From assembly GCF_044704955.1 (NCBI RefSeq), contig NC_091984.1, positions 179,366,001 through 179,430,000 on the forward strand: a stretch of DNA of 64,000 bases, written 5' to 3'. Both the position numbers and the translations under genes were made by a program. The notes under the pieces are model-generated. The model made no database searches. It saw only the letters and a program-made list of their open reading frames with translations, and was not told the DNA's origin. The DNA comes from Pristiophorus japonicus (lineage: Eukaryota). Below are positions 4,657-50,391 of the stretch, one piece after another; position 1 is the stretch's first letter, and each line of letters starts with the position of its first letter.

Positions 4657-6235
4657 CTTATTGAATATATTTCACAAAAAAGAGAGGCGATGCAGACATT
4701 ACAATCTGAGAGGAGGAGTGTGAAATATTAGACCGAATAAAGATAGTGACAGAGGAAATATCAAGGCGTTTAGAAGCGTTGCAAGTGGATGAATCGACAG
4801 GCCCGATTGAAATGTATCTCGCGCTATTAAGAGAAGCAAAAGAGGAAATAACAGAGACTCTGACCATTATTTTCCATTCGTCTCTGGCTACTGGTGTGGT
4901 GCCGCAGGACTGGAGTATTGTTAATGTTGTACCTTTGTTTAAGAAGGGAGAAAGGGATAAACCGAGTAACTACCTAACGTCAGCCTAACATCGGAGGTGT
5001 GGAAATTATTGGATAAAATTCTGAGGATAAATATTAATTTAGAATGACACGGATAATCAAGGACAGTCATTTGTCATGGAAGGCCATGTCTGAATAACTT
5101 GATTGGAATTTTTGAGGAGGTCACAACGAGGGTCGATGAGGGCAGTACGTTTGATGTTGTGTATATGGATTTTAGCAAGCTTTTGATAAGGTCCCACGTG
5201 GCAACCTGGTCACGAAAGTAAAAGCCCATGCAAGGCAAAGTGGTAAGTTGGCTCCAGAATTATCTCAGAGGCAATAAACAAAGGGTAATGGTTGATGGGT
5301 GTTTCTGTGACAGGAACGCTATTTCCAGTGGGGTTCCACAGCTCTCAATACTAGATCCCTTGCTTTTGTGGTATATATCATTGACTTAGACTTGAATGTA
5401 GTGGGTATGATTAAGAAGTTTGCACATGATACAACAATTGGTCGTGTGGTTGGTAATGAAGAAGAATGCTGTAGACTGCAGGAAGATATCAATGAACTGG
5501 TCAGGTGGGCAGAGCAGTGGCAAATAGAATTCAATCCGAAGAAGTGTGAGGTAATGCATTTGTGGGGGGCTAACAAAGAAAGGCAATATGCATTAAATTA
5601 TAGAACACTGAGAAGTGCAGAGAAACAAAGGGACCTTGAAGTGCATGTCGACAGATCCCTGAAGGTAGCAGGCCAGGTAGATAAGATGGTTAAGCAGCCA
5701 TACATAGTACGTGCCTTTATTAGCCAACACATAGAATACAAAAGCAGGGTGGTTATGCTTAAACTGAATAAAACACTGGTTAGGCCACAGCTAGAGTACT
5801 GCGTGCAGTTCTGATCACCACATTACAAGAAATATGTGATTGCACTAGAGAGGGTACAGAGGAGCTTTAAAAGGATGTTATCTGGATTGGAGAATTTTAG
5901 CGATGAGGAAGAATTGGATAGGCTGGGTTTGTTTTCTTTGGATCAGCGGAAACTGAGGGGGACCATATTGAGGCGTATAATATTAGGAGAGACCTAGATA
6001 GAGTGGAAAGGGAACACCTATTTCCTTTAGCAGAGGGGTCAAAAACAAGGGGGCATAGATTTAAATTAATTGGTAGGAGGTTTAGAGAGGATTTGAGGGC
6101 ACATTTTTTCACCCAGCAGGTGGTGGGGGCCTGGAACTTTCTGACTGAAAGTGTGGTAGAGGCACAAACATTCACCACACTTAAAAAGTACTTGGATGTG
6201 CACTTGAAGTACCTTAACTACAATGCTACGGATCA
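4657..6235 (+). mobile_element. CR1 LINE (5'-truncated, degraded); its 3' UTR resumes at 20004-20115 after the provirus
   Basis: ORF2 pieces VPLFKKGERDKPSNY, KFAHDT, LVRPQLEYCVQF; joining ...gctacggatca to accaagagctggaaagt... restores the 3' UTR seen intact at 28100-28130. Confidence 0.9.
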
Positions 6236-7453
6236 TGTAAGGTGGGTGGTTGGGGTGGTCTCTATGAGGGGGTCAGATTCCCTTCTGACCAAATTGAGCG
6301 GTTTGAATCGCTCCCACTCCCTTGGGTTCTGTACTCTGGATTTATTTGGGCGGTGTGACAAAAGTGCAAAGGACACTAGTTTGATGCAAAGAAAGTTGTT
6401 TTTATTACAGTCAAGGTAATACAGGCTTATTAGTCAAGTAAGAAAATACAAGGCCAAACTTACAATCATTCTAATACAGGACAGTACAGGGAAAGGTACA
6501 AGGTCAAACTTATAACCACTCTAATAAAGAAACATACACTGCATATTCAAAGGGGGTTACAGTAAATTATACCTCCCACCTCCCAATACCTAATTCTAGC
6601 TCGGTTAGACTCCAGTGCAGGCAGGGACTTATGCTTACCAATCCTTTTGATAGTTAATGGTAGATCGTGGTTGGTTTTCCTTTGATACCACGTTGACTGT
6701 AGTCAGAGGCTGCTGCGATGGGGATGTTCTTCCTTCCTTCAGGACTTCAGGACTCCGAGGCTGGAGAAGTTAGTTTATAACTGTCGCGTTGGTTTCTCTC
6801 CTTGGCTTGATGAGGTAGTAGCAGCCTTGCAGTTAACTAGAAACCACCTCCAACCTCTGTTGAAAACAGTGGCCAGTTATACGATTTCAGTGGCTCTAAT
6901 CTTAGCGCCAGATCTCTTCAAAATCCTTTGTATAATTTTGGTGAGCTTGGTTCTTCTTTGTAATATTTTTGTCGGGCTCGTTAGCAGTTGACATGTCTTG
7001 GGTGGGTTGATATTCGAAAAGTGTTTCCCGATGGAAAAATTAGTTTGGTAATTGCAATGTCCTTTTGTGCTTAGTCTTTGGCATGCAGGCTGGATTGGGC
7101 CTCTTTGTGATGTACATGCTGAAATGGTTGTCCAGACCCATGTTAATGAGTAGCTATTTTGTAATGTTAATGTTCCTTGTGGAGAAAGATTCTTGACTAC
7201 TCAATTCGCCAGACAAAGTTACTTCAGTTCCAACACCTAGGCAGACCCATTAATCAGGGTGTCTCCTGTGGGTTCTTTAGGTCCGCCCACAGCCTTGAAT
7301 TTGTCTTGTAAAATCCAAAATTCTATTAAAGTTCGTACCTTCTTCCATAAGCACTTTAGGGTTCTAAACGTTTTGGTAGATAGTCCCAAATTAAATTTCC
7401 TTTCGAATGAGCCCAAACACAGGGGAGTTTCTTTTGAATTTTGAATTCTTTCA
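6236..7453 (-). repeat. 3' LTR of lokiretrovirus-like element
   Basis: TG at 6236, CA at 7452-7453; direct repeat of 18748-20003. Confidence 0.92.
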
Positions 7454-7461
7454 TTCCCCCC
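7454..7461 (-). promoter_or_regulatory. Polypurine tract
   Basis: GGGGGGAA on the - strand immediately before the 3' LTR. Confidence 0.8.
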
Positions 7462-7845
7462 TGTTGACACTCCACACTACTAAGTGTTAATCAAGTTAAG
7501 CAAAATTCCTGCTCCAGAGAATCAACCTTCCCTGCATTTATACTAGCTAAAGATTACCTCCGTTGATGCAGGGTAATCTTTAGGCGAACACAGTCATTAC
7601 AATTCGGTTATAGCATAGAGGGTGTATGATGTCCCTATTTTACTCAGTTTTCACAGTAAAATGACGGTATACAGTCATACACAACTTTAAGTAAATAAAA
7701 TAAAAAGACATAGTAACACATTCTCAAATAGCATAAAGGTCCATAGTCAAACACGTTTTAAGTTCAGTAAAATAAATGTACATGATCAAATTTTTAAGTA
7801 ACACTCTTACAGCACTCGCGATGTTGCGGTTTACAGCAAGTAAAA

Positions 7846-10800
7846 TCAAACACTAATTAAACATGGTATTATGATGTCACCCCCTCCCTGCGCGATTCCC
7901 AAGTTCGGCCAAGGAGCGTATAGCACCCTCTGGTGCCTGACCTGATGGCCTCTGTGTTTCACTCGGCAAGTGAGACACCATAAGTAATGTATAATCTTGA
8001 GTTGAAAAATAACTAAAGTGTGGGAAGCGATTCGGATCCAAACTTTGAAGGGTAACTTTGAAGGTATGAGGCGTGAATTGGCTAAGATAGATTGGCGAAT
8101 GATACTTAAGGGGTTGACTGTGGATGGGCAATGGCAGACATTTAGAGACCGCATGGATGAATTACAACAATTGTACATTCCTGTCTGGCGTAAAAATAAA
8201 AAAGGGAAGGTGGCTCAACCGTGGCTACCTAGGGAAATCAGGGATAGTATTAAAGCCAAGGAAATGGCATACAAATTGGCCAGAAATAGCAGCGAACCTG
8301 GCGACTGGGAGAAATTTAGAACTCAGCAGAGGAGGACAAAGGGTTTGATTAGGGCAGGGAAAATGGAGTACGAGAAGAAGCTTGCAGGGAACATTAAGGC
8401 GGATTGCAAAAGTTTCTATAGGTATGTAAAGAGAAAAAGGTTAGTAAAGACAAACGTAGGTCCCCTGCAGTCAGAATCAGGGGAAGTCATAACGGGGAAC
8501 AAAGAAATGGCAGACCAATTGAACAAGTACTTTGGTTCAGTATTCACCAAGGAGGACACAAACAACCTTCCGGATATAAAAGGGGTCAGAGGATCTAGTA
8601 AGGAGGAGGAACTGAGGGAAATCTTTATTAATCGGGAAATTGTGTTGGGGAAATTGATGGGATTGAAGGCCGATAAATCCCCAGGGCCTGATGGACTGCA
8701 TCCCAGAGTACTTAAGGAGATGGCCTTGGAAATAGCGGATGCATTGACAGTCATTTTCCAACATTCCATTGACTCAGGATCAGTTCCTATCGAGTGGAGG
8801 GTAGCCAATGTAACCCCACTTTTTAAAAAAGGAGGGTGAGAGAAAGCAGGGAATTATAGACCTGTCAGCCTGACCTCAGTAGTGGGTAAAATGATGGAAT
8901 CAATTATTAAGGATGTCATAGCAGCGCATTTGGAAAATGGTGACATGATAGGTCCAAGTCAGCATGGATTGGTGAAAGGGAGATCATGCTTGACAAATCT
9001 TCTGGAATTTTTTGAGGAAGTTTCCAGTAAAGTGGACAAAGGAGAACCAGTTGATGTGGTATATTTGGACTTTCAGAAGGCTTTCGACAAGGTCCCGTAC
9101 AGGAGATTAATGTGCAAAGTTAAAGCACATGGGATTGGGGGTAGTGTGCTGACGTGGATTGAGAACTGGTTGTCAGACAGGAAGCAAAGAGTATGAGTAA
9201 ATGGGTACTTTTCAGAATGGCAGGCAGTGACTAGTGGGGTACCACAAGGTTCTGTGCTGGGGCCCCAGCTGTTTACATTGTACATTAATGATTTAGACGA
9301 GGGGATTAAATGTAGTATCTCCAAATTTGCGGATGACACTAAGTTGGGTGGCAGTGTGAGCTGCGAGGAGGATGCTATGAGGCTGCAGAGTGACTTGGAT
9401 AGGTTAGGTGAGTGGGCAAATGCGTGGCAGATGAATTATAATGTGGATAAATGTGAGGTTATCCACTTTGGTGGTAAAAATAGAGAGACAGACTATTATC
9501 TGAATGGTGACAGATTAGGAAGGGGGAAGTTGCAGCGAGACCTGGGTGTCATGGTACATCAGTCATTGAAGGTTGACATGCAGGTACAGCAGGCGGTTAA
9601 GAAAGCAAATGGCATGTTGGCCTTCATAGCGAGGGGATTTGAGTACAGGGGCAGGGAGGTGTTGCTACAGTTGTATAGGGCCTTGGTGAGGCCACACCTG
9701 GAGTATTGTGTACAGTTTTGGTCTCCTAACTTGAGGAAGGACGTTCTTGCTATTGAGGGAGTGCAGCGAAGATTCACCAGACTGATTCCCGGGATGGTGG
9801 GACTGACCTATCAAGAAAGACTGGATCAACTGGGCTTGTATTCACTGGAGTTCAGAAGAGTGAGAGGGGATCTCATAGAAACGTTTAAAATTCTGACGGG
9901 TTTGGACAGGTTGGATGCAGGAAGAATGTTCCCACTGTTGGGGAAGTCCAGAACCAGGAGTCACAGTCTAACGATAAGGGGTAAGCCATTTAGGACCGAG
10001 ATGAGGAGAAACTTCTTCACCCAGAGAGTGGTGAACCTGTGGAATTCTCTACCACAGAAAGTGGTTGAGGCCACTTCACTAAATAATTCAAAAGGGAGTT
10101 AGATGAAGTCTTTACTACTCGGGGGATCAAGGGGTATGGCGAGAAAGCAGGAAGTGGGTACTGAAGTTTCATGTTCAGCCATGAACTCATTGAATGGCGG
10201 TGCAGGCTAGAAGGGCTGAATGGCCTGCTCCTGCACCTATTTTCTATGTTTCTATGTTTCTAAACTGGGACTTCTATATTTCTGAAAAGGTCCCACCAAA
10301 GTGGAATGGTGATCTCAAGAATCTTTTTCCCTATCGCAATGGTTTTCTGTTGTAGAGTATAGAAGTGTTTTTGTGAGATAATTGCAGCTTTTAGCAGAAC
10401 GGTGAGATGTTCGGGTAGAGGGGGAATTGTATAGCCAAATTGTACAACATAATCCTGCAGGTTTGTAATGTTTTCCTTCACAGTGAGGTGGACAGTGGAA
10501 GGTTCAGGAATGGGGACAATCCGTTCCTGGGCCACTTGAACTGATGCCTCAGGTTTGAAGCAAAAATTGCTGTCACTTACCGGACACCAGAAGTGTCCAT
10601 GGTGGTAGTGGGGCACACTGCTGGTGACACAATATGTGCTACCCCCTATGTATGCTACCTGTGGAGGGACATGGTCTTGTGATTACTTCCATGGTGCAGT
10701 TAATAGGCTGTGCGCCAGCAGCTTTAAACCCAAACTGTGACTTTGAATGGGCACTTAAGTACTGGGTACACAATATTATGTGTGCACCCCGGCTCCGGCA

Positions 10801-12423
10801 CCTGGAGAGGTCAGTACCCGTTACGGCATGCTCCCACTTTATGACATAGGGTGGGACCGCTGCGAAACGAATGTGTGCACCTCCCTGAAAAACTCCACCT
10901 GGTATACCGGTACGGGTCGGGCAGTCCCACCCATGACTGGCATCCTTAATACTATCCCCATAATAGCGTGCTTAGATTTCTCACAGTCTACTGGGACAGG
11001 GTAGGCCTCAGAGGCTAGGCGGAACTGGCAAGGGCTTAGTGAATTGCTGTAAGGGTGGAGGGCTACAAGGTGCTTGTTCCTGATCCAAGAGGGGACTACA
11101 CCTTGTTTTAAATCCTGCAGGTTGTTGCGGCTATCGCTCAACAACCATGCCCCATATATTATGCACACCTCGTTCTGTGCAGCCTCGTCAGAAGCGTTTT
11201 TATCCTCCCGTATGAGTGCATTCACTGTCTGTGCATGTTTTTCCAGCTGAGCCACTCTTTCTTTTAAATGGACAATCATAACCTGGTCCTCGTGTAGTTC
11301 TGATCCTACTACGGTGGTCTCCTGTTTCAGGATTTTTCTCAATTGGGTCTTCAAACTGTTTATCTTTGTTTGCAGTTCTATGTCTTCTACAATATTTATT
11401 ACAGAGGATGCTGTATTGTAGTCGTTTATGATTCCCCTTCTAGGTCTCCCTGAGCCCATGGTGTTCCGAGTGTTTAGGGTGTATAGGTCTGCTTTGTCTA
11501 CATTTCCAAAGTCTAACTCATAAAATTTCTTGAACATGTCTCTAAGTAGGGCCTGGTATAGCAGCTCTGTTTCCTTCGGACACCATGCAGGTAGGTGTAC
11601 CTCGATAAGGTTTAAAATTACTGAAGCTACTGCATAATGTACCACCTGGTATAACACCTTTTCAGTCGTTACCAATACTAATCCATTTCCAGGTCGCTTT
11701 GTGGTGGTAGGACACCTTTCTATTACTGTGCGTATTGGCGGGGTTGTGGGCAGGGGTTTCTTAATGTGTGTTCTTTGTTCGGTGGCATTAATTAGGAGTG
11801 GGGAGTGTGGGACCGCACACCCGTGTAGGCGAGAATCCCACCCTATCCTTTCCCGTTCATCTTTCCATTGCCTGGCGAAGGCGATTGATATGCCTGCGGG
11901 ACAAATACTATCGGATCCCCACATGCAAACATAAATTCCTTTTCGGATCCCCACAATTTCTCCCAACATACTTTTACTCCTCCCCGTGTTCCCGTGATGG
12001 TGCAGTACGTATCATTACTGAGTCTTTCCCAGTCCGATTCCTGGTCCCATGTGTCCTTGCTGAGTTTTCTGAGCCCCCACCATCTTCCCAGGGGAATGTT
12101 TCCTTTGCAAGTCAAACATACACGTTTTCCCTCTGTAACACTGACTCGGGAAGCGATGATCCGTATCCGGGGGTATGGAACTGAGGCCTTCCCGTAGGTA
12201 ACGCCTTCTTGGTTGGAGTAGCGGGTAGAATTAGATCCAGCCACCCTGGCCATCTTCCCTCGTGGGTGTAAACGGTGAGTTCTTCCACATCTTGGGGGCC
12301 ACCCCCGGCGGTTACAATTGGTGCTCTTCCTCCTGAACATCCGTAGATGAGGGATTCTTCCACGTCTCCTCGGTCGCTGCTGCTCATCCCTATCAGGGCA
12401 AGCAGGACCAGGATCCTTCTCAT
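7846..12423 (-). pseudogene. env: env: F-like class I fusion glycoprotein, frameshifted and split by CR1 8045-10261
   Basis: Splice acceptor ttttatgtgcccctacAG (12438-12437); signal peptide MRRILVLLALIGMSSS; furin RPRR (11447-11436) followed by heptads; Cys-rich block DLSRCRSRGAHIILC...INCT...YC...WC...FC; PLWWDLFRNIEVPV/WIRIASHTLVIFQLKIIHYLWCL membrane anchor rejoined across the CR1. Confidence 0.8.
8045..10261 (+). mobile_element. Young 5'-truncated CR1 LINE inserted in env
   Basis: Nearly continuous ORF2 ([31 protein letters not shown]) with few stops; (TTTCTATG)n tail; AAACT duplicated at 8040-8044 and 10262-10266. Confidence 0.95.
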
Positions 12424-12813
12424 GCTGCTCTCGTTCCTGTAGGGGCACATAAAACAGATTGTCTAGCCCTGAGAAAGTTCTCTCGCTTGACAAAGGTAAC
12501 CGAGTTCCAAATTGGGCTCATAGTCTTTAATTGACTTGCTGTCTTATTCAGTTCCTTGTGGATTGATATCTGCTTTTAACTTTTATCTCACAGCCGTATT
12601 GCCTGTTATCCTACTGGTGCTTCCTTAATAGCCATCCATACCAGTAGATTCTTCTTATTCCTGGGTATTACCCGGCCTGTGCCTCTTTTAATAGCTGCAC
12701 AGATAGATTCCTTTTCCTTACCCCAGTTAACTAATACATATACATATTTATCATTACACAGATAACCTTACACTAATCTAACTTATTCACTAAACATACT
12801 TAAATTCATATTG

Positions 12814-15800
12814 CTATATATGTACATCTGCCACCCGTCTCCGGGTGGCCAGGTTAATTCCCTTTCTTTTTCTCCCGCTGCGTGTCCAGTGAGGTAGGTG
12901 ATAGGTCAGTCTCCACCGCCTAACCCTAAGTACCCTGACCGGATGTGGTTTTGAGTCCCACACTATCGGGGGAATGTCCCCTCCAGTGCTGCAGCACACC
13001 ACTCCTTTGGGGGTGGCTGCCTGGTTCCTTTCTTCCTCTGGGGGTTGTCCTGCCTGGTCGAATGCTAAGAGCTGGGGACTCCCACTTGGTGGCTGGTCCA
13101 CCGCTATCTCTTCCGGGGGTCCCTTGTTTCCCGAGGCTACAGGCTCGGTGTCCCTGCCCGCGGGCTGGTCTCTGACCTTAGGTGCCCTTTTGCAGCTGGA
13201 CCCTCTCCCGGGGCTGAAGCATTTAAATTGGAGTGCTGGTGACCATGGTGTCTTTGGACGTGGCGTGCAGGGAGTCGTTCTTAAGGCTCCGGCTGCTGGA
13301 GGTGCGTCTGAGTCCCAAATGATTGGAGGGACATCTCCTCCAGTAACACAGACCACCGCTCCTCTAGGTGCAGTCTGTGGGTCTGTCACATCCCCTGTGG
13401 GATCTCCACAGTCGGGGGTTGTTGGCTGGGGGTCCCTGTCTTTAGCACGGTTTACAGGTTTTGGCTGTCCCTTACGTTTAGCTGCTGCCCCTGAGTTGAA
13501 ATGTTTGCACTGATTTATGTGGAACCACTTTGTTTGGCGGGGCTATTTTATGGCATAGACCATGGGCTTCCCTTGTCGACATTGTGTTAAGGTCCCATGT
13601 ACAGTGCCTCAAAGACCTCTACTCTAACGTAGTTCCTTACCATGACCTGGTCCCCTATCTCCCACTCGTGGTGCTTGCAGGTCTCTAGCAGCAGTCGGTT
13701 GCTCCAATGCTGTTTTCCCATGTTGTTAGCAGCCTGCCAGTGAATCTGTTTAAGGTGTTCAAACAGATTCCTAACAAAGCTGTCCCGGTTCACTTCCCTA
13801 AGCTGACCTTCCGTGAGTACCGGGGCTAACATATGGGTGGGGGTTCGCATGGCTCTGCCGGTTATGAGCTCGTACGTGGAGTACCCCGTACTCTTTGACT
13901 GGCTGGCCCGAATCCCCATGAGGATCGGACAGGTGATGCAGGAGACCCTTAAGGTACTCGGCATCAAAGGGAAATGGCATGTCGCCCACAACCCGCAGTC
14001 ATCCCTTTGGGTGAGTCCCCTGTTTCTTTGCGCAGCCTCTCTTTCATGGTGTGGTTTAAATGCTCCACAGGCCCAGATGACTGCGGGTTGTGGGCGACAT
14101 GCCATTTCCCTTTGATGCCGAGTACCTTAAGGTTCTCCTGCATCACCTGCCGGTGAAGTGACTCCCTTGGTCGGACTCCACGTATTGTGGTAGTCCCGAT
14201 TGAGGGAACACTTCTCTGACCAGGATGCTCGCTGTTCCCAGGACAGTGGCTGTTCGGCATGCGAAGGCTTCCACCCATTTTGTGAATACATCCACTAATA
14301 CAAGGCAGTACTTGTAACCTCTCTGGGCAGTGGGTAGGGGCCCGATGTAATCGATTTGGATCGACTGCCAGGGTCCCTCTACCCTCCTGATATGTCCCAT
14401 AGACACCTTTCTTTTCTGGGGGTCGGGGTTGTTAGCCGCACACACCAGACAGCTGATGCAGAACTCGCGGACATCTTCCCTGAGTCCTGGCCACCACCTT
14501 GCCTGTTCCACTTGTTGCCAAGTGGTTTCAGGTCCGGATGTCCTGTTCCTGGACCCTCGTGGGCCAGCTGGAGGATTTCTCTCTGGAGCTGTTGCCGTAC
14601 TACCCATTGCTCCCTCCTGAACAGCATGCCTTCTTTAATGGCAATTGCTGCGGTGCCATACAGACCGTCAATCCTTTCCTCTTTAGCTAGCTGTTCAGGA
14701 CAGTTTTGCGGACGGGGTCTTGGACCTGAACCGTTTTTAGGTCCGGGGTCAAAGCTATCCCTGCCTTCCCTGCCGTCCCCATCCTGGCCCTGACTGCTAC
14801 TATGGGTCCTGGGTTGTATGGATCCCAGAGCTTGTCCGTGCAAGCACCTTGCTTGGCTAACATGTCAGCCTGCTCGTTTTCCCTTGCTACAGGGTATCGT
14901 GGTGGAATGTACCTTCACCTTATGTATGTAGATATTCCTTTCTTTCCATGTGGCTTTCATGATCTTTTCCAGTAGGGGCTTAATTGCCAGTGGTGTGGAT
15001 GTATCCGCGGCGGGACCAAATAGCCAGCTACTCCGTACATGAATTGCATGTGAAAATACTGTCCGAGCAAATCGTGAATGGGATAGGGAATTCTTCGGAG
15101 TATGTGACTACGCACACCACCACAGGCAGTTCAGCATGCTAGGCAGTCATGGTGCTGGGGAGTTTAATCGCCAGGGCAATGCCTGCATCAGGGTCATTAT
15201 CTCCACAGCCTGTGAGTCGTTCACCTGCGGATACTGTGCTTGAACCGTCCCACATGGATCTCTTGGCCTGTGGGGTGTAACCCAGCCCGAAAGCCTATGT
15301 TAATTTCCCATACCCCATCTATGGAACACCGGTGGGCTGTCTCTGGATAAATCATGTTAGCTGCGAGTCTTGGCTCGCAGAGACCCTTCAGCCGTAGATC
15401 CATTTGAGAGAGGAGCAGGGTCCAGCGAGCAATGCGGGCACTGCTCACTGTCCCGTCCTTGATTCTCCCGTCCAGGAGCATTTGGGTTGGCGTATGGTGG
15501 GTAAGAAGTGTGATAGGGGACCTCCCTGTGAAGATCAGTGATCTTTTCACAGCCCAGTGAGTGGCTAGGAGGTGCCGCTCACAGTTGGAGTATCCCTTTT
15601 CCACGTCCGTGAGTATCCTGGAGGAGTAGACCACTGGTCTCAGCTGGCCATGCCGCTCTTGGAGCAATACTGCACTCCGGCTGTCCCCACTGGCTGCTAC
15701 CTCCAGGAAAAAACTCTTTACTCCCATCTATGGCCCCTAGTGCCGTCGCTGTCTGCAGGTCTTTCTTGAGTTGGATAAATGCTGCCTCGCAACCTTTGTC

Positions 15801-17080
15801 CCATTCTCACTCCACTCCCTTATGTCGGAGTCGAAGCAGAGGGGCTACTGTGGCTGCATAATCCTCAATGAAATCTCTGTAGTACCTGGTTAGCACTAGA
15901 AAAGATCTTGCTCCTGATACTATGTTGGGGGCGGGTAACTTCTGCACTGCTTCCCTTCTAGCTTTGTCTATTGCTCTTTCCACTGCGTGCACAGCCAGTC
16001 CCAGGAATTTTACTTCCTTCAGGCCGAACTGTGCCTTTTCAGGGTTTACTTTAAATCCCTCTTCTTTCAGTAGCTCCAGCAGCTCAGCCAGCAGTGGGCC
16101 ATACTCCTCCCCCACTTCGGTGAACAGGAGCAGGTCATCTACATACTGGACTAATTGCTGCGGTCTGCTGAAACTCTTTAAACAGTTGGCCATACGCTGA
16201 TAGAAAATACTGGGGCTGTTGTGGAAGCTCTGAGGGAGACAATTCCAAGTATATTGCTCTCCTTTAAATGTAAAAGCAAACTTGTACTGATCTTCCCTTC
16301 TTAAAGGTATGGACCAGAACCCGTTGGAAATATCCAGCACCGTGAAGGTGGTCGCGGAGGTTGTGATACTTCAATGAAGTCGGCGACAGCAGCAAAAGTG
16401 GGTGCATAGGTGGGGATGTTACGGTTGAATACTCGATAGTCCACCGTGGCTCTCCAGGAGTTGTCCGGTTTCTTAACCGGCCACAATGGAGAGTTCACAT
16501 GGGTCGCTATTGGTCTCAATACCCCCTGTTTAACTAAAGAACCCAAGGCTGTTTCCATGTCTGCCTCCGCCTCCCTGGGGAAGTTGTATTGTTTCATGGG
16601 GTCCCCATCTGTACTAACCTCGACCCCATTTATTCTCCCACAGTCGTGTTTATGAATGGCAAAAGCTGCAAGGTTTTTCCTCACATATTCTTGATATTCT
16701 ACAGGGGTGTTAAGGTCGTAACTCTCCTTTGGTTTCATGGTGCACACGGTTCCTTTTCCCTGTTTTCCCGAGATAAACATCACCTCACTCTCCTGTCCAG
16801 TACAGACTGACCCCCAAAGACAGTGGTTTCTTAAATCCACTAAGATCCCGTGGCCTAGGATGAAGTCAGTCCCCAGGATTCCTCTCCCTTCCTGCTCGCA
16901 CTTCATCAGGACACAAGTCCACTTCGTGTGGAGTGTACCTAAATGAATGGAGAGCGGAACGGAGAATGAGCCAGTTTGTTCAGTGCCTGTGAAACCCACC
17001 AAACTGTAGGGGACCCCGTTAGACAGAGGTGAGGCGGCGGCATTAGCTGCATAGACAAGGGTGCTTGAGGCACCGGTGTC
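12814..17080 (-). pseudogene. pol: pro-pol: truncated protease, RT, tether RNase H, second RNase H, integrase with long C-terminal extension
   Basis: DTGAS...GILGTDF; LDISNGFWS...LPQSFHNSP...QYVDDLL (YVDD 16146-16135); RPVVYSSR...CERHLLA; IHVDGSS...HAEL...ICSDS...HKVKVH...NEQADMLAK (~15260-14850); H-H-C-C, QIDYIGP, ESDQGSHF, SSGPVEH; many frameshifts and stops. Confidence 0.9.
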
Positions 17081-17084
17081 CCTT

Positions 17085-18674
17085 TCACCTTTTCCACTTC
17101 TTTCGTGTGCTATTCTTCCAAGGATTTTTACAATCCCTTCTCCAGTGCCCAATCGTTCCGCACCCAAAGCAGGTAAGTTTTGTATCGGAGGGGTTACCCC
17201 CCTCATGGCGCCATTCCTCTTATCTTGGTTAGGTCGGATTTCGTGAAGCCTTCCCTTTTGTGGGTGCTTTTCTGCCCCTCTGCCGTTTATGTAAGCTAAG
17301 GTCAGTTGCCTAAGCACTCTCTGGGGATCTCTTGGGTCGAACCAGGCCTCAGCCTTGGTTCTTATTCTGGGTAAACTGTTAGCTACTAGGTTTCGGAGCC
17401 AGTTTGCTAATTCGTCCGGGTTTAAGTGATCCCTGTCTATGTCCCCACTATAGGCGCTTTTGTACACCGGCCACAGTCGGTCTGCTAAAGCCTGTGGGGT
17501 TTCTCCTGTGAGCTGCAGCGTTTTCCCTACTCTAGAGAAGGGACTCCCGTCATTGCAGCCCATAGCTTCTAAAATGTCTTTCTGGACGGACGCAACTGTT
17601 TTCTGTCCTTTTTTGCTTTCAGTAGAGAGGGACTGATACAGTTTGCTGTCTAGAGATAGGAGAAGCATCTTTGCCATTTCTGCATCATCGCACCCATTAA
17701 TATCCCCTGCCTGTTCCACTTCCACAAAGTGAACCGAGGGGTGTCCCTTTGGAGTTAGCTTTCCCAGGGGGCTTATCATAGCCCTAAGCTGGTGGTGAGT
17801 GTGGGGGACCAGAAACTGACTTTACAGGGGCCGTGGACCCCCGTTAATGGTGTGCAGGCCAATCTTCTGTTGCCAGACCGGGCCCATTGGCCCCAGTTCT
17901 GGCTCTCCCTGTTCTGGCTCTCCTCCCTGCAGACAAGCCGAGTTGAAACTCGGTGCTACAGGTGGTGGTAGTTCACTATCCCTGTCCACCCCGCAACTGA
18001 TTTGCCCCTCCTACTGCTGAACCAGTGTAGTTACTGGTGCCACAGGTAGTGACCAGGTAGTTTCTTCCTTCTCTTCCAGGATTACCTGGGGCGTACCCGG
18101 GCTTATTAGGCATACCATGCCTTTTGCCTTGGACAGAGCAAGGTTTAAACTTTTAATTTGTTGCTGGCAGGAATCCTGATCTCCCGATTCAAACCCTAGA
18201 TTCAAATGTTAGTTACTTTATACGCTGCTTGCGCATCTTTTAATCTTTCCTGGAGCTCTTTTAGTTGTAGGTGAAGCTTTCCTCCCTCAGTGATTTTTCA
18301 TTACTTTTGGCCTCGGTAACCTGACATTGAAAATAGTCCTGACTGCTTTTAAACCTTTCCATTATTTGGGTCCTTTCCTGTTTTAGCTTACAGAGTTCTC
18401 CTGATAATCTTTCTTCTGACATAACCCTTTCCTGATAGTTCTCTGCGCATTCCCATAACTCTGCCTGTAATGTTTCATTCATTCTATCTAGGAGTTGGAC
18501 CTGTCGCTGTAGACAGACCAACCAAATTGCCTTCTCTACTGCTTCTTTGTGATCTTTGCTTGCTGTCCACTGGGCTGCAGCGTCAGCTGGACGCTCAGCG
18601 TGCAATAGACTAAGCACCCATTCTTTAGTTACATTGACCTTCTTATACACATAGGAGGAAATCCACTCCTCCAT
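17085..18674 (-). pseudogene. gag: gag with N-terminal coiled coil, capsid-like region and CCHC knuckle
   Basis: ATG 18674 (MEEWISSY); E/K/Q-rich heptads 18550-18270; QLTGETPQALADRLW MHR-like motif; CFGCGTIGHWRRDC at ~17171-17130 in a shifted frame. Confidence 0.8.
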
Positions 18675-18726
18675 TTCGGTTCTTTGCCCAAACCAGCACT
18701 CTCCACATGACACCCCTTGTACCACA

Positions 18727-18744
18727 GTCCTGCCGCGCTCGCCA
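18727..18744 (-). promoter_or_regulatory. Primer-binding site, tRNA-Arg-like
   Basis: TGGCGAGCGCGGCAGGAC 3 nt after the 5' LTR; resembles the Arg-type TGGCGAGCCAGCCAGGA (tRNA identity tentative). Confidence 0.7.
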
Positions 18745-18747
18745 CTT

Positions 18748-20003
18748 TGTAAGGGGTGTGGTTGGGGTGGCCTCTATGAGGGGGTCAGGTTCCTTTCTGA
18801 CCAAGTTGAGCGGTTCGAATCGCTCCCACTCCCTTGGGTTCTGTACTCTGGATTTATTTGGGGTGTGTGACAAAAGTGCAAAGGTCACTGGTTTGATGCA
18901 AAGAAAGTTGTTTTTATTACAGTCAAGGTAATATAGACTTAATAGTCAAGTAAGAAAATACAAGGCCAAACTTACAATCACTCTACTAAAGGAGAGTACA
19001 AGGAAAGTTACAAGGTCAAACTTATAACCACTCTAATAAAGAAACATATACTACATATTCAAAGGGGGTTACAGCAAATTATACCTCCCACCTCCCAATA
19101 CCTAATTCTAGCTAGGTTAGACTCCAGGGCAGACAGGGACTTATGCTTACCAATCCTTTTGATAGTTAATGGTAGATTGCGGTTGGTTTTCCCTGGATAC
19201 CACGTTGACTGTAGTCGGTCGCTACTGCGATGGGGATGTTCTTCCTTCCTTCAGGACTTCAGGACTTCGAGGCTGGAGAAGTTAGTTTACAACTGTCGCG
19301 TTGGTTTCTCTCCTTGCCTTGATGAGGTAGTAGCAGTCTTGTAGCTATCTAGCAACCACCTCTAACCTCTGTTGAAAACAGTGGCCAGTTATACGATTTC
19401 AGTGGTTCTAATCTGAGCGCCAAATCTCTTTAAAATCCTTTGTATAATTTTGGTGGGCTGGGTTCTTCTTTGTAATATTTTTGTTGGGCTCGTTAAAAGT
19501 TGATATGTCTTGGGTGGGTTGATGTTCGAAAACTGTTTCCCGATGGTAATATTAGTTTGGTAATTGCAATGTCCTTTTGTGCTTAGTCTTTTGCATGCAG
19601 GCTGGATTGGGCCTCTTTGTGATGTAATGCTGAAGTGGTTGTCCAGACCCATGTTGATGAGTAGCTATTTTGTAATGTTAATGTTCCTTGTGGAGAAAGA
19701 TTCTTGACTACTCAATTCTCCAGAAAAAATAACTTTAGTTCCAACACCTAGACAGACCCATTAATCAGGGTGTCTCCTGTGGGTTCTTTAGGTCTGCCCA
19801 CAGCCTTCAATTTGTCTTGTAAAATCCAAAATTCTATTAAAATTCGTGGCTTCTTCCATAAGCACTTTAGTGTTCTAAACTTTTCGGTAGATAGTCCCAA
19901 ATTAAATATCCTTTCGAATGAGCCCAAACACGGGGTGCGGGTGCGTGTGTGTGTGTGTGTGGGGGGGGGGGGGCGGGGTACTTGTGAATTTTGCATTTCT
20001 TTA
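18748..20003 (-). repeat. 5' LTR of lokiretrovirus-like element
   Basis: Direct repeat of 6236-7453; carries a private (GT)n/poly-G expansion at ~19935-19978. Confidence 0.92.
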
Positions 20004-20884
20004 ACCAAGAGCTGGAAAGTAGGTTTAGACTGGAAAGCTCTTTGTCGGCAGGCACGTATATGATGCATCGACATGGTCTCCTTCCATGCTGTAAATTTCT
20101 ATGATTCAATGATTCCCCTTAAATGCATCTATACTCTTCGTGGGTCATCATAAAAAGTTGTGAAAAATAATGGGATGGTGTTTTCGACAAGAGTATTAGG
20201 TATGGACGTGCTAGATTCTGTACCTATTTCCGTTCCTGAAGGTTTTGATACTGGAGTTAGTGGCCTGCATCACCATATGCTGGACACCAATACTGTTCAG
20301 CAGATTGCAGAATTAACGCAGTTAGGAAAAGTTCACGACACTTTTCATCCAACTACCTCGTTTCCATACCTGTATTTGGCAAATGATTTGGGCCAGACAA
20401 CCGAGTGGTTTGTATCTTGCATGTTGCTGTTGTGAGCTGCAATATGGGAGATTTTTCATATATCTCTTGTTGATGCTATGAAGGATCCAGGGGTATAATA
20501 AACTATGGCGCAATGTACGTTTGATTTAACCGTCACTGTCCTGCACCAGTTTGGCTTCAGGGTGTGGCAAGTTTCCCTTGTGGCCTATTTAGGGAATAAT
20601 ATACTTCATTTACAACATTCTTGTAACATACTCAGCAATAATTGTCTTGGCCTCTACACTGGACTCGTTCCTATGAGAATATCGTAGGGGATAGTACACT
20701 ATATTGCATGCCTCAGTAGAAGATGGAAGTTATCATAATTACATTGTATAACATTACAGCTCACGGCTCTCTGAATATTTCAGAATATCTACACTTTCGT
20801 GCTACTCTTGAAATGTATTCAGAGGTAATAATATTTTAATGAGTTTTACAAAATAAAGTAACAGAATAAAGCGCCAAGGCAATG

Positions 20885-21290: not shown

Positions 21291-22417
21291 ATGACAGGAT
21301 GTCCAGTTAACTCAGCTGTCCTGGGTATCGAACAGTGGAACCTCTTGCCCGGAAAGTGGAAGGGTGAGGATGGGAATATTCAGCGCAAGCTACATGAATC
21401 AGAAATGTTATCGTGAACGGTTGTGCAGTTGACTGATGAAATAATTTAATGTTTGGACAATGAAAGAGTCGCTGCCATTTGGAGATTTCCCCATTCTGTC
21501 TCCTACATTATCGAAAGAGCAACATCGTAAAGGGTGCAATGAAATTCCCATCTCTGGTTAACTGCCTTAAATAGCAATGACTTATTTGAACATCATTCTT
21601 TGTACACAATGTAAGCGAAGTCTGTTGGCTCACCCAGGTCACGTTCTGCTGTCCACTGACGCAAGTTAATACTCAATGCGTCTCTACAGTATTTACCAAT
21701 TCGCGCTCCCAGACCATCGCCTGCCGGGAGCGCGGGTAGTACAATCTCCCTTTTGTGTGATTCAAAGGTCTCTATAGTGAGCGATAATATTGATGCAATT
21801 CTTTCTCTAAAAAACACTCGCCTTTAAAACATAAAATAAAAAGCTGCAGTGTTCAAATCTACTTTAGGAGAAATAGTTTTGCTGAATATTAACAAGTATT
21901 CTTTACTGAACTTGTTTGAATTTTAAAAATGAGTTCTTCGTGGTCGAATAATGTTAAAAATGGATTCGAAATCACTAATGCTTATGTTCATAGAAGAATA
22001 CGGAGATGTGCGATATGCCACATCTCTGTTCGCAGCCTCCAGTTGTCTTAGTGCAGTGGGTAGCTTGATATCTCTTTCGATTGAACAATTCTTCCAGGAC
22101 GCATTGGATCAAATTACACTGTGTAGTTTTGCTATATCTACTTTTCAGGTTTGCATGAAATTATTTTAACAGTCATGAAGTCATTTTAACAGGTTTTAAA
22201 TAGTGTAATGTCTCTGTTAAATAGCAACCAATGGATATGTCACATGAACTCATTCAGCATCCCCACGCAAAGTTGGACACCGTAATTTCATGTCAACGGT
22301 TTCTGCACGTCACGATCGGGTCGAATATTATAAAAAAATATTGGCTAAAATTCACTTCATGCAAACATTAATCAGACAGATTCCAAGGATCCAATAAACG
22401 GTCGCGATGTGAGAGCA

Positions 22418-22425
22418 ATTTGCAT
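22418..22425 (+). promoter_or_regulatory. Ig light-chain promoter octamer
   Basis: ATTTGCAT ~130 bp upstream of leader ATG 22551; conserved at 40619. Confidence 0.9.
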
Positions 22426-22550
22426 AAATATTAAATGCGACATGATATCCCCCTGTGTAAATGCACTTAAGGAGGTTTAGAAGGTGCCGGATGAGTAGGC
22501 TCGTGCAGGGAAATATTTTGTTCTGACCTTGATTTTTAAAAATCTGCAAA

Positions 22551-23099
22551 ATGAGTCACTGGTTTCGTGTTCTCGCTGCCGTGATGCTCTGCTTGCAACG
22601 TAAGTACAGCGCTGCAAACATCTTCAATATTCCTGCTCTTTGTATTACGCTGATCGGGTGCCTTACTTAAACTTCACCGATCTAAATTGCAATTATTTTC
22701 CGCAGTTTTTTTCAGGGTCACTTATTAATAACTTTTTAATTCACCAGGTACCAAAGCGGGTACTGAGCTGACTCAGACACCGTTTATCTCAGCTTCATTG
22801 GGAAAAACCATCAAAATCACTTGCACCCTATCCGGCGGCAGCATGGGCAGCTACTACACGAACTGGTGCTGGCAGAAACCTGGCAGTGTCCCTGCCTTTG
22901 TTTGGAAGGACGCTAGTTCGAGCAGAGGTGCGGGGATCCCTGATCGATTCACTGGATCCAGGGACAGGTCCAGCAACGTCATGCATTTAACCACCAACAA
23001 TTTACAATCCGGGGATGCCGCCGATTGTTTACTGTGGTGCCTGGCATAGCAGTGCTGGTGGATACATTTTTGGGAAATGAACTAAACTGAATCTGGGCA
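22551..23099 (+). pseudogene. Ig light chain (lambda/type II) leader (22551-22599) plus germline-joined VJ exon (22748-23099), pseudogene
   Basis: MSHWFRVLAAVMLCLQ/gtaagt; KITCTLSGG...WCWQKPG...GIPDRFTGS; +1 frameshift at DYYC (gattgtttactgt) and GGA>TGA in J (FGK*TKLNLG); no RSS between V and J. Confidence 0.92.
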
Positions 23100-23569
23100 G
23101 TAAGTACATTTTTCGCTTTGTACGCCTGGGATTCTTGAAGTGTGAGTTTTCAATTGTTGGCTTAATCCGGTTGTGGTGATAAGCTTTCCAACATACATTT
23201 ATAATTCTCGGAATCTCTCTTCCTGTTTAGAGAGAGATGTGTTCATACTCTGTTTGCCAAGTGCTCATGAAACTGTCGCACAATCACAATTTTATGGAAG
23301 AATTCCAAACTCTTTCGAATAATTATTCCTGGGTGGGTAGAATTGAACCCACGCCAGTTTAGTTATACTGTCATTGCGATTTGAAACATATTCGGAAAGC
23401 AATGACCAATCTTCATGAAACGGCACTTAAAATTAACTGAATACTTGTGGCTGACTTACATCGTCCTCGCGTTGTGATTAATGTCTCGCGTAGAGCTTAA
23501 AAAATATATAGCGAGAAATATTTTCTAATTCCCCGACACTGTAAAACATTAATTCATAATTTCACTAGT

Positions 23570-23867
23570 CATCATCATAGACAGTCCCTCGAAATCGAGG
23601 AAGACTTGCTTCCACTCCAAAAGTGAGTTCACAGGTGACTGAAAAGTCCAATATGGGAATACAGTCTCTGTCACAGGTGGGACAGGCAGTCGTTGGAGGA
23701 AAGGATGGGTGGGGAGTCTGGTTTGCCGCATGCTCCTTGCGGTGCCTTGTTTTCTGCATGCATTCGACGACAAGACTCGAGGTGCTCAGCGCCTTCCCGG
23801 AAGCTCTTCCTCCACTTAGGGCTGTCTTTGGCGAGGGACTCCCTGGTGTCAATGGGGATGTTGCACT
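23570..23867 (-). mobile_element. RTE-clade LINE 3' fragment in the J-C intron
   Basis: C-terminal ...CPTCDRDC... motif and (GAT)n tail; 10-bp TSD TTTCACTAGT (23560-23569, 23868-23877); empty site in the paralogue at ~41799-41808. Confidence 0.85.
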
Positions 23868-26064
23868 TTTCACTAGTATGTAACGAGTAGTTATAAATCA
23901 TAGTGATTGGGTTAGAAATGTTAATATAAATTACAGATTTTAAGAAGTTCTTTTTTGCATTCAGGAATATTAATGTTTTCAGAGATAAAATGGGATTTGA
24001 GGTTTGTTGTCTTTGGGAAGATATTATGGATGGGAAAGTTCATATCCTATCTGGTATAGTTATATGTTTTCAAGGGTACTGGGAAATATTGTTTGAAGAG
24101 AGATTATCTTATTTAAGTCAAATGATGCGTCCTTGGTAACTATGATCTCCTGAATCCGATTAATTTTGTATGGATCAGCGTTCGAGTTCTTATTTAAGTC
24201 TGTCAGTAAAAACATATAATCCTACACGTAATACAAGAGACTCAAACGATAGTTGTATTGGAATACTTAGCTATATGCTGTAGAAGAGGGGCTGCTTTGT
24301 ATTATAAATTGCCCCCATTCAATTTGCATCTGATGCAAGTTAAATTTCAAATACAATTTTGACAGAGTAGAAGATTATACTTTCAAATTATTTGCACATC
24401 TGGCGGTTGGCTTGTCTCAGTTGTAACTTTCTCACATCTGCAGCAGAACATTTTAGATTTAAGCCCCTTCGCCATGCTTCACATCGGAACACAGGAACAG
24501 GACAAGACTATGGAGCCCCTTGTGCCTGTTCCACATTCCATTGGATAATGGCTGATATGTAGCTTCACTCCATGTATCCGGCTTTGCTCCCCATCCCTTG
24601 ATATCCTTATCCTACACAAATGTATTGATCTCAGTCTTAAAAATCTCAATTTACCCAACAGCCACAATTGTTTTGGGGCAGGAAGTTTCAGATTTCCACC
24701 ACCCTTTGTATGAAAGAGTGTTTCCTGATTTCACTCCTTTATGCCATGGCTCTAGCTTAAAGACCTTGCCTTCCTGTTCTGGATTCGCCCACCCGAGGTA
24801 ATAGTATATGGACGGAGTGCGGATTTGAAGGAAATTCCTTCCTTTCGATGATGCCATAAAGAGGAACTCCACATTCGTTTTCAATCGATTTGCATTATTC
24901 GAAGAAAAGCAGAAGATCACAGCCCATATCCCAAGCCCCATCAATTATTGCCTTAGAAGGAATGGATTTGTGGCTGCAGCTTCTTGCCCTGTTTAGGTTT
25001 ACTATCACTGCGCTGCAGACTAATACATTTCAAAACGGATGTAGTGCTATATAAAGCTACATGTTATCCCTTTTTAAATTAAGGTAAGCAGTAGAAGCAG
25101 CTGAACTTCCTGCAGCAGATGGTTCCACCTCTGACTAGGCAGCTAAAAATGGAAAAACTGGGTAGCGATGACATCAAATAGCTACTCAAGCGTGACTCTG
25201 CCAGCGTGCAATAATAGTCCCAGCATTCACATTAAAACCGACTGAAAAGACTGAACAGACTGGGGCTCTGAATCGTTAAAGATGCTGGGAGGTGACCTAA
25301 TACAGGTCTTTTAATTTATGAAATGGTTTGATAGTAGACGTAGGAAAGATGTTTCCAATTGAGGGGTAGTCCAAAACCAGAATCATTAATAGTATATTGC
25401 CACGAATAAATGCAAGAATGAATTCAGGAGAAACGTCTTTGCCCGCAGAGTGGTTAGAATATGGAACTTGCTAGCAGATAGAGCATTTGAGGAGAAATAT
25501 TTAAATTCCTTTAAGTGGAAGCTAGGTAAATACATGAGGGAGAAAGGGATAGAAGGATGTGAAGATAGGGTTGGGTGAAGCAGGGTGGGAGGAGGCCCGT
25601 ATGGATCAGAAATACCGGCATAGACCAGTGGGGCGGAATGCCCTGTTCCTGTGCTGTAAATTCTATGTAATTCCATGCAAAAATACAAGGATGGCACTGT
25701 TGAGCGTTATTAATCTTGCATTGTAATATTCTTAATAGGTTTGGGCTACACATTAAAAGAAACTTTAAAGAAAGTAAAACTGTGATCTTCAGATTTATTC
25801 GAAATAAAAGCAAATCGTCTTCCAGTTTTATTATTTTCTGAATGCACGGAGCACTCGATTTCTCTGCAATTCATTATGCAGTTTTCTAGATCAACTGATC
25901 CTATGCGATTAGTTGAAGAACATTATTAATCTCCCATTGTAACATTCTTAAGATCGTACAGTTGTACGAAATTTAAATCTTTGAAATGGTAAAACGTAGA
26001 ATTTCGACTTTTTACATCCAATTCTGAGTGGCTTTTCACGGACTGTTTCTAATTTGTTTCTCAG

Positions 26065-26396
26065 ATCCGCGGGCCCCCTAGGTGTCCTTCCATCCGCCTT
26101 CATCGGATCAGATCGCAGCAAAGAACACGGCGATCCTGGTGTGTTTGGTGAACGGCTTTAACCCGGGGCGTTGTGGAGATTGAATGGTTGAATGGACTGT
26201 AGATGGCAGTGTGAGAGGAAATGGTGTTGAGACGAGTCAGATCCAGCAGGAGACGGACAAAACGTTCAGTGTGTGCAGTTATCTGACTCTGCCAGCCTCA
26301 GAGTGGAACTCACACGAGCTTTAATCCTGTGTGGTTAAACACGACACTCAGGCAAATCTGCTTCAAACAAGCATCACGAGATCCAGCTGTATCTGA
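26065..26396 (+). pseudogene. Ig light-chain constant exon, pseudogene
   Basis: Acceptor cag/atccgcgg; TAG in codon 6, +1 frameshift, TTGAATGG duplication, TAC>TAA; ends ...SSCI*; AATAAA at 26600-26605. Confidence 0.92.
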
Positions 26397-27280
26397 TTCA
26401 ATAATCTTATGTATTCTTCTAATATACCATTAGTAAACTTTCTTTGAACAAAGTTCGAATTTAAAGGTTAAGTTTTTTTTTAGTTTAATTGCAAGGTATA
26501 ACGATAAATATACAGTTAGTTTAGCTTGATTCAACTGGGTGTAACTCAAGAGTATGCTGAGTCTGCAGTCATCATACCTTTACTGTCTCATCGCAGAGTA
26601 ATAAAATGATTATTCCGCTTTTCAGATCATGTTATTCTTTTCTTGCTTTAAATTTTTCCGAATGTATAACCATTTTTAAACCGTCCAAATCTCTAGGTTC
26701 CACACTTTGTAAACGCTTGTAAGTTAACATAAAACCGCCAAATTCTCGGCAGAAATAACGATAGTACAGAACGGATGTGTGATGGGGTCGAAATCTAACA
26801 ACCTACAAAATCCTAATTTCGGTTTATATACTGATTGAACTGCATTGAGTCCGTGATTGCATTTAATATTCTCCCTTTTTCTGAATGATCTCAGTGAGAA
26901 ACTATATAAGTACCAAATAACGTTGTATCATGCCCGATGGAAAAGATGAATCTTAATTAGATTCCCAGTAGAATGGGAATACAACCTGAATTGAAAAGGG
27001 AATGCAGAGAATCATAGAATGATTTCGCACAGAAGGGGGCCATTCGCCCCATCCGATTTGTGCAGGCTCTTTAAAACACCTTGTCCAATTGGGGCCACGC
27101 CCTTGAAATTTCCACATAGCCCTGCAATTTCTAACCTTCAAGTATTAAATTGCCATCTCTGAATTCATTCTGCACGTAGTTAAAGCACGGATCCCTTGCT
27201 CATAAACATCCACATGTTAGAGTTTATTTTGAATCGATTTTAATTGCATTTACCAGACGCATAAGAACACGGACAGTACA

Positions 27281-32318: not shown

Positions 32319-32612
32319 TAAATGCCACTAGCCGGTGATGTACAAGCTAATTATAAATATATTTTCAGGTCAATGGTTTTGACTTAAACTTACTCAATCT
32401 GCCAAGCAAATGTTTTTTTTCGTCCATCAGGTTGCAAATATTAGGGGACAGTTTAATGGGCGCTTTTGGAAACCGATTTAAATTATTTGCTGTAATCATC
32501 TTACAAGACAGTTATATTTTTGTACCCGGGAACTATGACCTAAAAACTAAAGAAAAATCGAAAATTGGTAGTTGACAAATCCGAAGCTGCACACTGCGAT
32601 TAATGTACTTAG

Positions 32613-40618: not shown

Positions 40619-40626
40619 ATTTGCAT
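40619..40626 (+). promoter_or_regulatory. Ig light-chain promoter octamer
   Basis: ATTTGCAT ~130 bp upstream of ATG 40754. Confidence 0.9.
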
Positions 40627-40753
40627 AAATAATAAACGTGACGAGATATCCCCCTGAGTAAATGCTCTTAAGGAGAGCTTTAGAAGGTGATGCATCATTA
40701 GGTGTGTGCAGGGAAACATTTTGTTCTGACCTTGATTTTTTTAAATCTGCGAA

Positions 40754-40802
40754 ATGAGTGAGTGGCTTCATGTTCTCGCTGCCGTGATGTTCTGTTTGCA
40801 AT
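40754..40802 (+). CDS. Ig light chain exon 1 (leader)
   Basis: MSEWLHVLAAVMFCLQ + phase-1 GTAAGT donor at 40803. Confidence 0.92.
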
Positions 40803-40942
40803 GTAAGTAGAGGGCTGTTAAAGTATACCTGCTTATTGTATTATACTGATCGGGTACAATATTTGAGCTTGACCGGTCTGAATTACAATTCTTTCCGCAG
40901 TTTTACTGAGGGACACTTATCAATAACCTTTTATGTTACCAG

Positions 40943-45068: not shown

Positions 45069-45270
45069 TTCAATAATCTGATGTATTCTTCTAATCAGTA
45101 AACTTTCTTTGAACAAAGTTCGAATTAAAGCTTAGGTTTTTCTAAAGGTTAATTGCTGTATTTCAAGCTATAAAAATAAAGATGCAGTTTGTTTGCTTGA
45201 TTCCTCCAGGTGTAACCCAAGAGTGTGCTGACTGTGCATTCATCATACCTTTACCGTCTCATTGCAATAT

Positions 45271-50389: not shown

Positions 50390-50391
50390 TT

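Follow-up and report, generated by a model that had tools for sequence, protein, structure and literature searches.

A provirus that lies in an immunoglobulin (Ig) locus of the sawshark Pristiophorus japonicus raises the question of which retroviral lineage it descends from. It occupies positions 6236-20003 of a stretch of 64,000 nucleotides (NCBI RefSeq assembly GCF_044704955.1, contig NC_091984.1, positions 179,366,001 to 179,430,000 of the forward strand), which we call the window. A preliminary description, made from the sequence alone, had presented it as a complete provirus of the lokiretroviruses, a group since renamed lokiortervirus (PMC9040795). We find a dead member of a shark family of endogenous retroviruses (ERVs) with a high copy number, a family that probably combines a canonical pol, likely similar to that of snakehead retrovirus (SnRV), with an envelope gene likely of F type rather than gamma type. 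The family is lokiretrovirus-like only in its envelope.

Phylogenetic placement of pol

Reference proteins came from a search of 1.84 billion representative sequences; the 81, 36 and 35 rows of our trees were hand-picked from 169 proteins with a reverse transcriptase (RT) match, most gypsy rows and short fragments being dropped. In the tree of RT plus tether (a degenerate RNase H), the window copy was represented by another natural copy, L013, 87% identical to it in RT. The 81-row quick tree places the family inside the canonical-retrovirus clade (99*) and the rows with the lokiretrovirus motif in a separate clade (99*), and the same two clades are found with the 36-row RT tree (100/99* for both) and with the 35-row RT plus tether tree (100/99* and 100/100*, respectively). 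The canonical clade holding the family also contains SnRV and walleye dermal sarcoma virus (WDSV) along with gamma/epsilon-like rows, and all three trees recover the published shape, with lokiretroviruses sister to canonical retroviruses. Forcing the family together with the lokiretrovirus rows on RT plus tether costs 53.3 log-likelihood (lnL) units and is rejected by the approximately unbiased (AU) test (p-AU 0.0016). In RT, the family is 45% identical to SnRV, 51-54% to canonical pols (bullfrog and unnamed) and 35-41% to seven lokiretrovirus rows; these seven carry the signature PFGY-N-S-EF, which the family RT lacks, having LPQGFHNSP. With an RT inside canonical Retroviridae and apart from the six to seven lokiretrovirus references, the family pol groups with canonical retroviruses and not with lokiretroviruses.

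Several points weigh against this placement. The reference labels were assigned by eye from the RT motif, using the SnRV, WDSV and lokiretrovirus rows of PMC7947760, and no tree contains a foamy, ERV-L or Odin sequence. A lokiretrovirus RNase H would be expected in a group I with foamy viruses and its integrase near CGIN1, and no CGIN1 reference was among the rows. On RT alone, forcing the family onto the lokiretroviruses costs 40.9 lnL units and is not rejected (p-AU 0.087). The integrase tree (27 rows) gives no resolution, integrase identity does not split the family from the lokiretrovirus rows, and the RNase H tree (24 rows) sets the two apart without starred support. The RT, RNase H and integrase trees that the preliminary description had proposed thus place the family in Retroviridae with RT, alone or with the tether, and leave its position unresolved with the other two domains.

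Could the family then represent the first lokiretrovirus, though a divergent one, of cartilaginous fish? Its dual RNase H and an F-like envelope with a furin site are as in PMC7947760, and the AU result on RT alone and the integrase identities fit as well. We nevertheless consider this highly improbable, given the three trees, the rejection on RT plus tether and the RT signature, and also an Arg primer-binding site (PBS) and an Env of ~830 aa as against ~520 aa in Loki-Xtr. One lokiretrovirus PBS appeared, by eye, to be of what we take to be a Met type. With a lokiretrovirus RT as query, none of the 150 scored matches in the same genome exceeded 43% identity and, in PMC7947760, none of six chondrichthyan genomes was lokiretrovirus-positive. 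The extension of lokiretroviruses to chondrichthyan hosts, raised in the preliminary description, is lost, since the family is not one of them and no such RT was seen among those matches. We also considered the bullfrog and coelacanth matches (P0005, P0006) as Loki-Rca and Loki-Lch, but the Dataset S3 sequences differ.

The dual RNase H had been read as the retroviral rather than the Ty3/gypsy layout. It does separate the family, together with an RT outside the gypsy clades, from Ty3/gypsy elements, as had been proposed, but it is common to all retroviruses, lokiretroviruses and Odin (PMC7947760, PMC9040795) and therefore does not discriminate among them.

Within the canonical clade, the family falls into an open polytomy that also includes SnRV and the pols of a bullfrog and a coelacanth and lies outside the gamma/epsilon clade (100/100*) that holds WDSV. 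Among named viruses, SnRV comes closest in RT identity, and we infer that the family likely belongs among the snakehead-retrovirus-like lineages (clade Huo, class III); telling against this, SnRV is not a supported sister of the family in any tree. The likeness extends to LDISNGFWS and LPQGFH-SP-IFH in RT, the dual RNase H, an in-frame gag-pol stop and a size of ~11.5 kb. The SnRV primer is also Arg. The family differs in its stop context (UGA-CUA versus UAG-GGC in SnRV; PMC13517186), in a short Env tail (136 residues in SnRV; PMC12193657) and in long terminal repeats (LTRs) of 1.2-1.5 kb. SnRV-like ERVs are already known in a chimaera (CmiERV lineage I of the elephant shark; PMC4422223), clade Huo is found across all vertebrates (PMC6001957), and class III predominates among the ERV RTs of cartilaginous fish (PMC11089739).

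The RT had been called spuma-like. Compared by eye with Dataset S3 of PMC7947760, its motif is nearer to SnRV than to spumaviruses. A foamy-like element would have an F-like Env too (PMC11468914), such ERVs occur in cartilaginous fish (CmiFLERV in the trees of PMC7947760), and the best PDB matches of the RT are foamy Pol, a biased ranking in that no SnRV-like RTs are among the PDB matches. The family RT is without the foamy NGFW-HP motif (by eye), its Gag has a CCHC knuckle, its pol lies in frame behind a stop and its PBS is Arg. Foamy viruses, which are not known to have a zinc knuckle, express Pol separately and use a Lys primer, and we find a foamy origin barely credible.

Organization and decay of the window provirus

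The features of the provirus and its borders are as follows (TSD, target-site duplication; LINE, long interspersed nuclear element).

6236-20003, minus strand: whole provirus, LTR-gag-pol-env-LTR with PBS, polypurine tract and TSD
6232-6235, no strand: left target-site repeat ATCA, 3/4 match to 20004-20007
6236-7453, minus strand: 3' LTR, TG...CA on the minus strand (LTR alignment)
7454-7462, minus strand: polypurine tract, a 9-nt purine run
7850-8044, minus strand: 3' end of env with the transmembrane helix and a short tail (80% by tblastn against natural copy L039; hydropathy peak in L039)
8040-8044 and 10262-10266: AAACT repeats bordering the LINE, 5-bp TSD
8045-10261, plus strand: 5'-truncated CR1-like LINE within env (RVT_1 E=6e-12; AAACT TSD; repeats elsewhere in the window)
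10262-12423, minus strand: env 5' part, broken, with signal peptide, ~270-aa N-terminal domain, F2-like segment, RPRR, fusion-peptide/heptad region and Cys-rich region
11436-11447, minus strand: furin site RPRR, inside the env 5' part
12814-13542, minus strand: long Pol C-terminus beyond the SH3-like motif of integrase; internally repeated motif, basic end
13563-14600, minus strand: integrase, H2C2 and core, broken (domain scan)
13930-14003 and 14076-14149: inverted duplication inside integrase
about 14830-15282, minus strand: second RNase H, catalytic type, broken across frames (tblastn to natural copy; motifs)
15251-15718, minus strand: tether, a degenerate gypsy-type RNase H (RT_RNaseH/PF17917 E=8e-19, degenerate RNase H at 15224-15727)
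15800-16591, minus strand: reverse transcriptase, frameshift near 16370 (RVT_1 E=1.5e-27)
16830-17080, minus strand: protease, DTG motif (PF13975 E=0.004)
17095-17105, minus strand: site of a 231-bp deletion removing the gag stop/pol junction, where other copies have in-frame TGA-CTA
17109-18674, minus strand: gag, broken, with coiled-coil-like helical N-terminus, capsid (CA) region and single CCHC zinc knuckle
18727-18744, minus strand: PBS, tRNA-Arg(TCG), 17/18 nt
18748-20003, minus strand: 5' LTR, outer end broken up by a microsatellite at about 19936-19978
20004-20007, no strand: right target-site repeat ACCA

The window copy is a real but dead provirus, one dead member among hundreds. The LTRs, PBS and polypurine tract named in the preliminary description are all present, but the copy cannot be called complete, with stops and frameshifts in every gene, the gag-pol deletion, the inverted duplication in integrase and an env split by a LINE of ~2.2 kb, which we take to be CR1-like from its tail and RT type; excluding this LINE leaves ~11.5 kb. 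The LTR alignment proposed for dating gave 1112 identical columns of 1188 (93.6%) and a Kimura two-parameter (K2P) distance of 0.067, a GT/G microsatellite standing in place of the outermost ~70 nt of the 5' LTR. The PBS matches the 3' end of a tRNA-Arg(TCG) gene of the same genome (six pattern matches genome-wide), and ARAGORN called two of four loci Arg-TCG. As for the TSD, the flanking 4-mers are alike at only three of four positions and the 5' boundary is ambiguous; perfect 4-bp TSDs were found in 5 of 7 readable fetched copies, two of the five apparently representing one insertion.

The RT motifs LDISNGFWS and YVDD were found as described. The degenerate RNase H was likewise located, its three catalytic acidic residues replaced (by eye), and the second RNase H, described at ~14850-15260, holds up: by tblastn it is 70% identical to its counterpart in a natural copy, for which PF00075 gives E=9e-20, and its motifs D-G-S, A-E-L, S-D-S and A-D are spread over different frames. 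The gene order can be read from L013, in which one stop separates the open frames of gag (618 aa) and pol (1331 aa); the latter encodes protease, RT, the tether (RT_RNaseH), RNase_H (E=9e-20), H2C2 and rve, plus an SH3-like motif. From these features, the ancestor would have primed reverse transcription with tRNA-Arg, used the degenerate RNase H as a tether and the second as the active enzyme, and integrated with 4-bp duplications.

The long coiled coil assigned to Gag stands as a helical, coiled-coil-like N-terminus, with weak Pfam coiled-coil matches (E 0.03 in the window copy, 0.005 in a natural copy). In L013 it lies within Gag's own 618-aa frame, followed by one CCHC knuckle, and zinc knuckles were the only matches in a PDB sequence search with Gag. 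We saw no separate smc-like open reading frame (ORF), an optional lokiretrovirus trait, in the family. A coiled-coil Gag as lokiretrovirus hallmark does not agree with the available part of PMC7947760, which is without that trait and gives a separate smc-like gene in some members.

At 12814-13542, Pol continues for ~230 residues after the SH3-like motif of integrase; this stretch contains a motif repeated twice, and its end is rich in Arg. Frames resembling this tail are also present in other env-bearing copies.

The envelope protein

Natural env frames at eight loci encode 611-748 aa in the order signal peptide, ~270-aa Trp/Cys-rich N-terminal domain, RPRR, fusion-peptide/heptad region, Cys-rich region and one transmembrane helix. 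The gamma-type immunosuppressive domain (ISD) and CX6CC motif were not found in the family env, which the preliminary description had called unlike gamma-type Env, while control envs from the same genome have CX6CC in two of two cases, with ISD also seen. The same description had likened the Env to the F protein of Mononegavirales, a claim that is probably right, although it gains its support through a relative. Scanned with PF00523 independently of the family env, the genome yielded four matches among 10 candidates, the best being L063, the env of a third ERV family (Fusion_gly PF00523 E=1.7e-6 in Pfam; 2.2e-7 is reported for lokiretrovirus Env). A profile of the window family's env scores 137-141 bits on the long envs of that third family and 32.5 bits on the fragment L063, with 300 shuffles at or below 4 bits and gamma-type envs below 0 or unreported. 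The top ESM Atlas families for env are gypsy Env, Baculo_F and Fusion_gly (0.90-0.93), the ten best family-bearing matches all falling in one clan, and by eye the segment order parallels that of Loki-Xtr Env in the supplement of PMC7947760. Because the family env is homologous to one with a PF00523 match and its Atlas neighbors are F-type, it is likely a fusion protein of F type (class Ib, paramyxovirus-like) and not of gamma type.

Against the F-type assignment, direct PF00523 scans matched none of five pieces of the family env, and in the third family matched one of eight short fragments and none of six long envs. PDB sequence searches with env gave no F protein or foamy Env match, two AlphaFold2 models were of low confidence (pLDDT 28 and 32), and the ESM Atlas recognition is under its threshold. 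This lack of a direct Pfam, PDB or confident fold match would suit a novel class I fusogen unrelated to F, alike only in its heptads and furin site. Since the L063 match spans positions 10-105 of the profile, a part lying upstream of both heptad and fusion peptide, and all ten Atlas matches fall in one clan, we hold such a fusogen to be quite unlikely.

Foldseek with the second env model listed paramyxovirus F first in BFVD (E=2.6e-3) and respiratory syncytial virus/human metapneumovirus F first in PDB (E=0.6-0.9); with TM-scores near 0.1, neither is evidence. A PF12259 scan of the genome gave two weak matches, neither of them related, and no relatives were found in viral and metagenome collections. 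Three sawshark gene models, P0025, P0026 and P0028 (Niban-1-like, cadherin-related and zinc-finger), contain pieces of the family env and are probably annotation chimeras.

As an F-type protein, the ancestral Env would have had its fusion peptide and heptad repeat exposed by furin cleavage at RPRR, and its extra N-terminal domain of ~270 aa possibly binds the receptor. With lokiretroviruses it shares the signal peptide, R-x-[KR]-R, fusion peptide, coiled coil, transmembrane helix and F-like core (by eye); Loki-Xtr Env is without the N-terminal domain. It likely has the same scaffold as the class Ib fusogens (foamy Env, paramyxo- and pneumovirus F, coronavirus spike), differing from them in that no sequence match to solved structures was found. 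Foamy Env shares the F core, and the F scaffold accepts add-on receptor-binding modules (PMC11468914); the added module is N-terminal in the family, as in spike, and an inserted receptor-binding domain in foamy Env (PMC11468914).

The gag-pol junction

The gag-pol junction was readable in 8 of 10 fetched copies and has an in-frame TGA in all eight, followed by CTA in six; the window copy, owing to its deletion, has no such site. Genome-wide junction patterns had six key bases left free and the following G fixed. Env-type junctions gave 329 matches (among 100 listed, counted by eye, TGA-CTA in 88 and TGA kept in 99) and env-less-type junctions gave 260 (among 100 listed, 83 and 94). The codons flanking the motif are not the same in the two subfamilies, an argument for selection on TGA-CTA. 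Conservation of the stop context among copies partly reflects descent, and a 3' stem is favored only at env-type junctions (z -0.9 to -3.0) and not at env-less ones (z 0 to +2), both of which count against readthrough.

UGA-CUA is the type II leaky context of alphaviruses (Sindbis, o'nyong-nyong), while the retroviral contexts given in the available part of PMC13517186 are UAG-G, UGA-AGA, UGA-CGA and UGA-AGU, with UGA as the stop in three aquatic retroviruses. By analogy with alphaviruses, in which the motif also stands at an in-frame stop before the polymerase, we infer that the ancestor made Gag-Pol by ribosomal readthrough of the UGA; unlike the alphavirus case, the family is retroviral and shows no conserved downstream stem. 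A UGA-CUA junction would add a readthrough type to retroviruses. No UGA-CUAG retrovirus was found described in the literature covered, which falls short of most subscription journals and Repbase.

Among variant junctions, TGA-CGA was the commonest, accounting for 7 of the 100 listed for each subfamily, and the same context is reported for ZFERV of zebrafish (PMC13517186).

Env loss, further families and the possible origin of the envelope

The family is abundant in this genome of 5.9 Gb. All 150 scored matches of the RT piece (of 146,355 candidates) are 84-89% identical to it, apart from itself, and all 150 scored matches of the env piece (of 17,001) are 80-87% identical. Seven of ten fetched copies (L013, L015, L017, L019, L021, L023, L025) have no env match, a ratio biased by the choice of eight of the ten for long open frames. 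They share the same pol, with a different LTR and PBS, and their LTR divergence is 0.014-0.034 (five measured), versus 0.054-0.076 in env-bearing copies (three measured). This younger subfamily lost env and likely kept multiplying inside cells, a natural case of a retrovirus becoming an intracellular retrotransposon.

Two further ERV families were seen in the genome. The second (L051-L062; RT 40-42% to the lokiretrovirus query, gamma-type transmembrane protein, gag-pol stop TGA-TG[CT]) has the same pol with two different env sequences in different copies. The third (L063, L065, L069-L080; gag-pol stop TAG-GGG, 151 matches to its env fragment) has a ~730-aa env homologous to that of the window family at 23-26% identity.

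The pol of the third family is sister to that of the second (99/92* and 100/99*), which means that canonical pols have changed env type at least once. Env swapping of this kind would suit the recent capture of a lokiretrovirus env by a canonical pol, the F-type env being a local oddity. That origin seems unlikely, because the env is found in sawshark and skate proteins (57-91% identity), because its presence in two distant pol lineages at only 23-26% identity implies old residence, and because no lokiretrovirus RT was seen in the genome within the limits given above. Among named proteins, the relatives of the family env are 59-91% identical in sawshark and 58-71% in skate.

A non-foamy canonical pol with a likely F-type env occurs in two separate lineages of pol within a single shark genome and has relatives among sawshark and skate sequences, and the pairing would bear on the origin of retroviral envelopes. 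The literature covered describes no F-type env in SnRV-like ERVs, and the family's combination of features is not described in the available parts of 10.1101/2023.10.26.564294, 10.1101/2024.03.17.585361, PMC12583693, PMC4977317, PMC12287698, PMC13709493, PMC8922424 or PMC12193657. We tentatively suggest, as a possibility that we ourselves find doubtful, that F-type Env is ancestral in retroviruses and was kept in lokiretroviruses, foamy viruses and basal canonical lineages including the window family, gamma-type Env being a later replacement, and that this family is the first retrovirus group with alphavirus-type UGA-CUA Gag-Pol readthrough. If so, the shark genome catches the swap from F to gamma type, since sister pol lineages carry either envelope. 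PMC9040795 found no detectable similarity between canonical and lokiretrovirus Env and preferred two independent origins of enveloped retroviruses, a preference that an ancestral F-type Env would overturn. Which Env came first becomes testable by comparing env and pol trees in cartilaginous fish.

Surroundings of the provirus in the window

The Ig setting given in the preliminary description is borne out by light-chain V and C segments within the window. Downstream of the provirus are V-set domains at 22732-23046 and 40927-41298 and a C1-set domain at 44682-45065. Light-chain clusters are repeated at 22237-27102, 32533-33018 and 40438-45739; at 40927-41301, a single germline open frame unites V and J, and a C exon lies at 44682-45068.

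A second, younger provirus lies at 49424-59747, with LTR repeats 98% alike, gag and a 768-aa pol piece. Its env is of canonical gamma/epsilon type (TLV_coat E=2e-12, ISD and CX6CC) and served as a negative env control, and its leader contains GC-rich tandem repeats (50933-51909).

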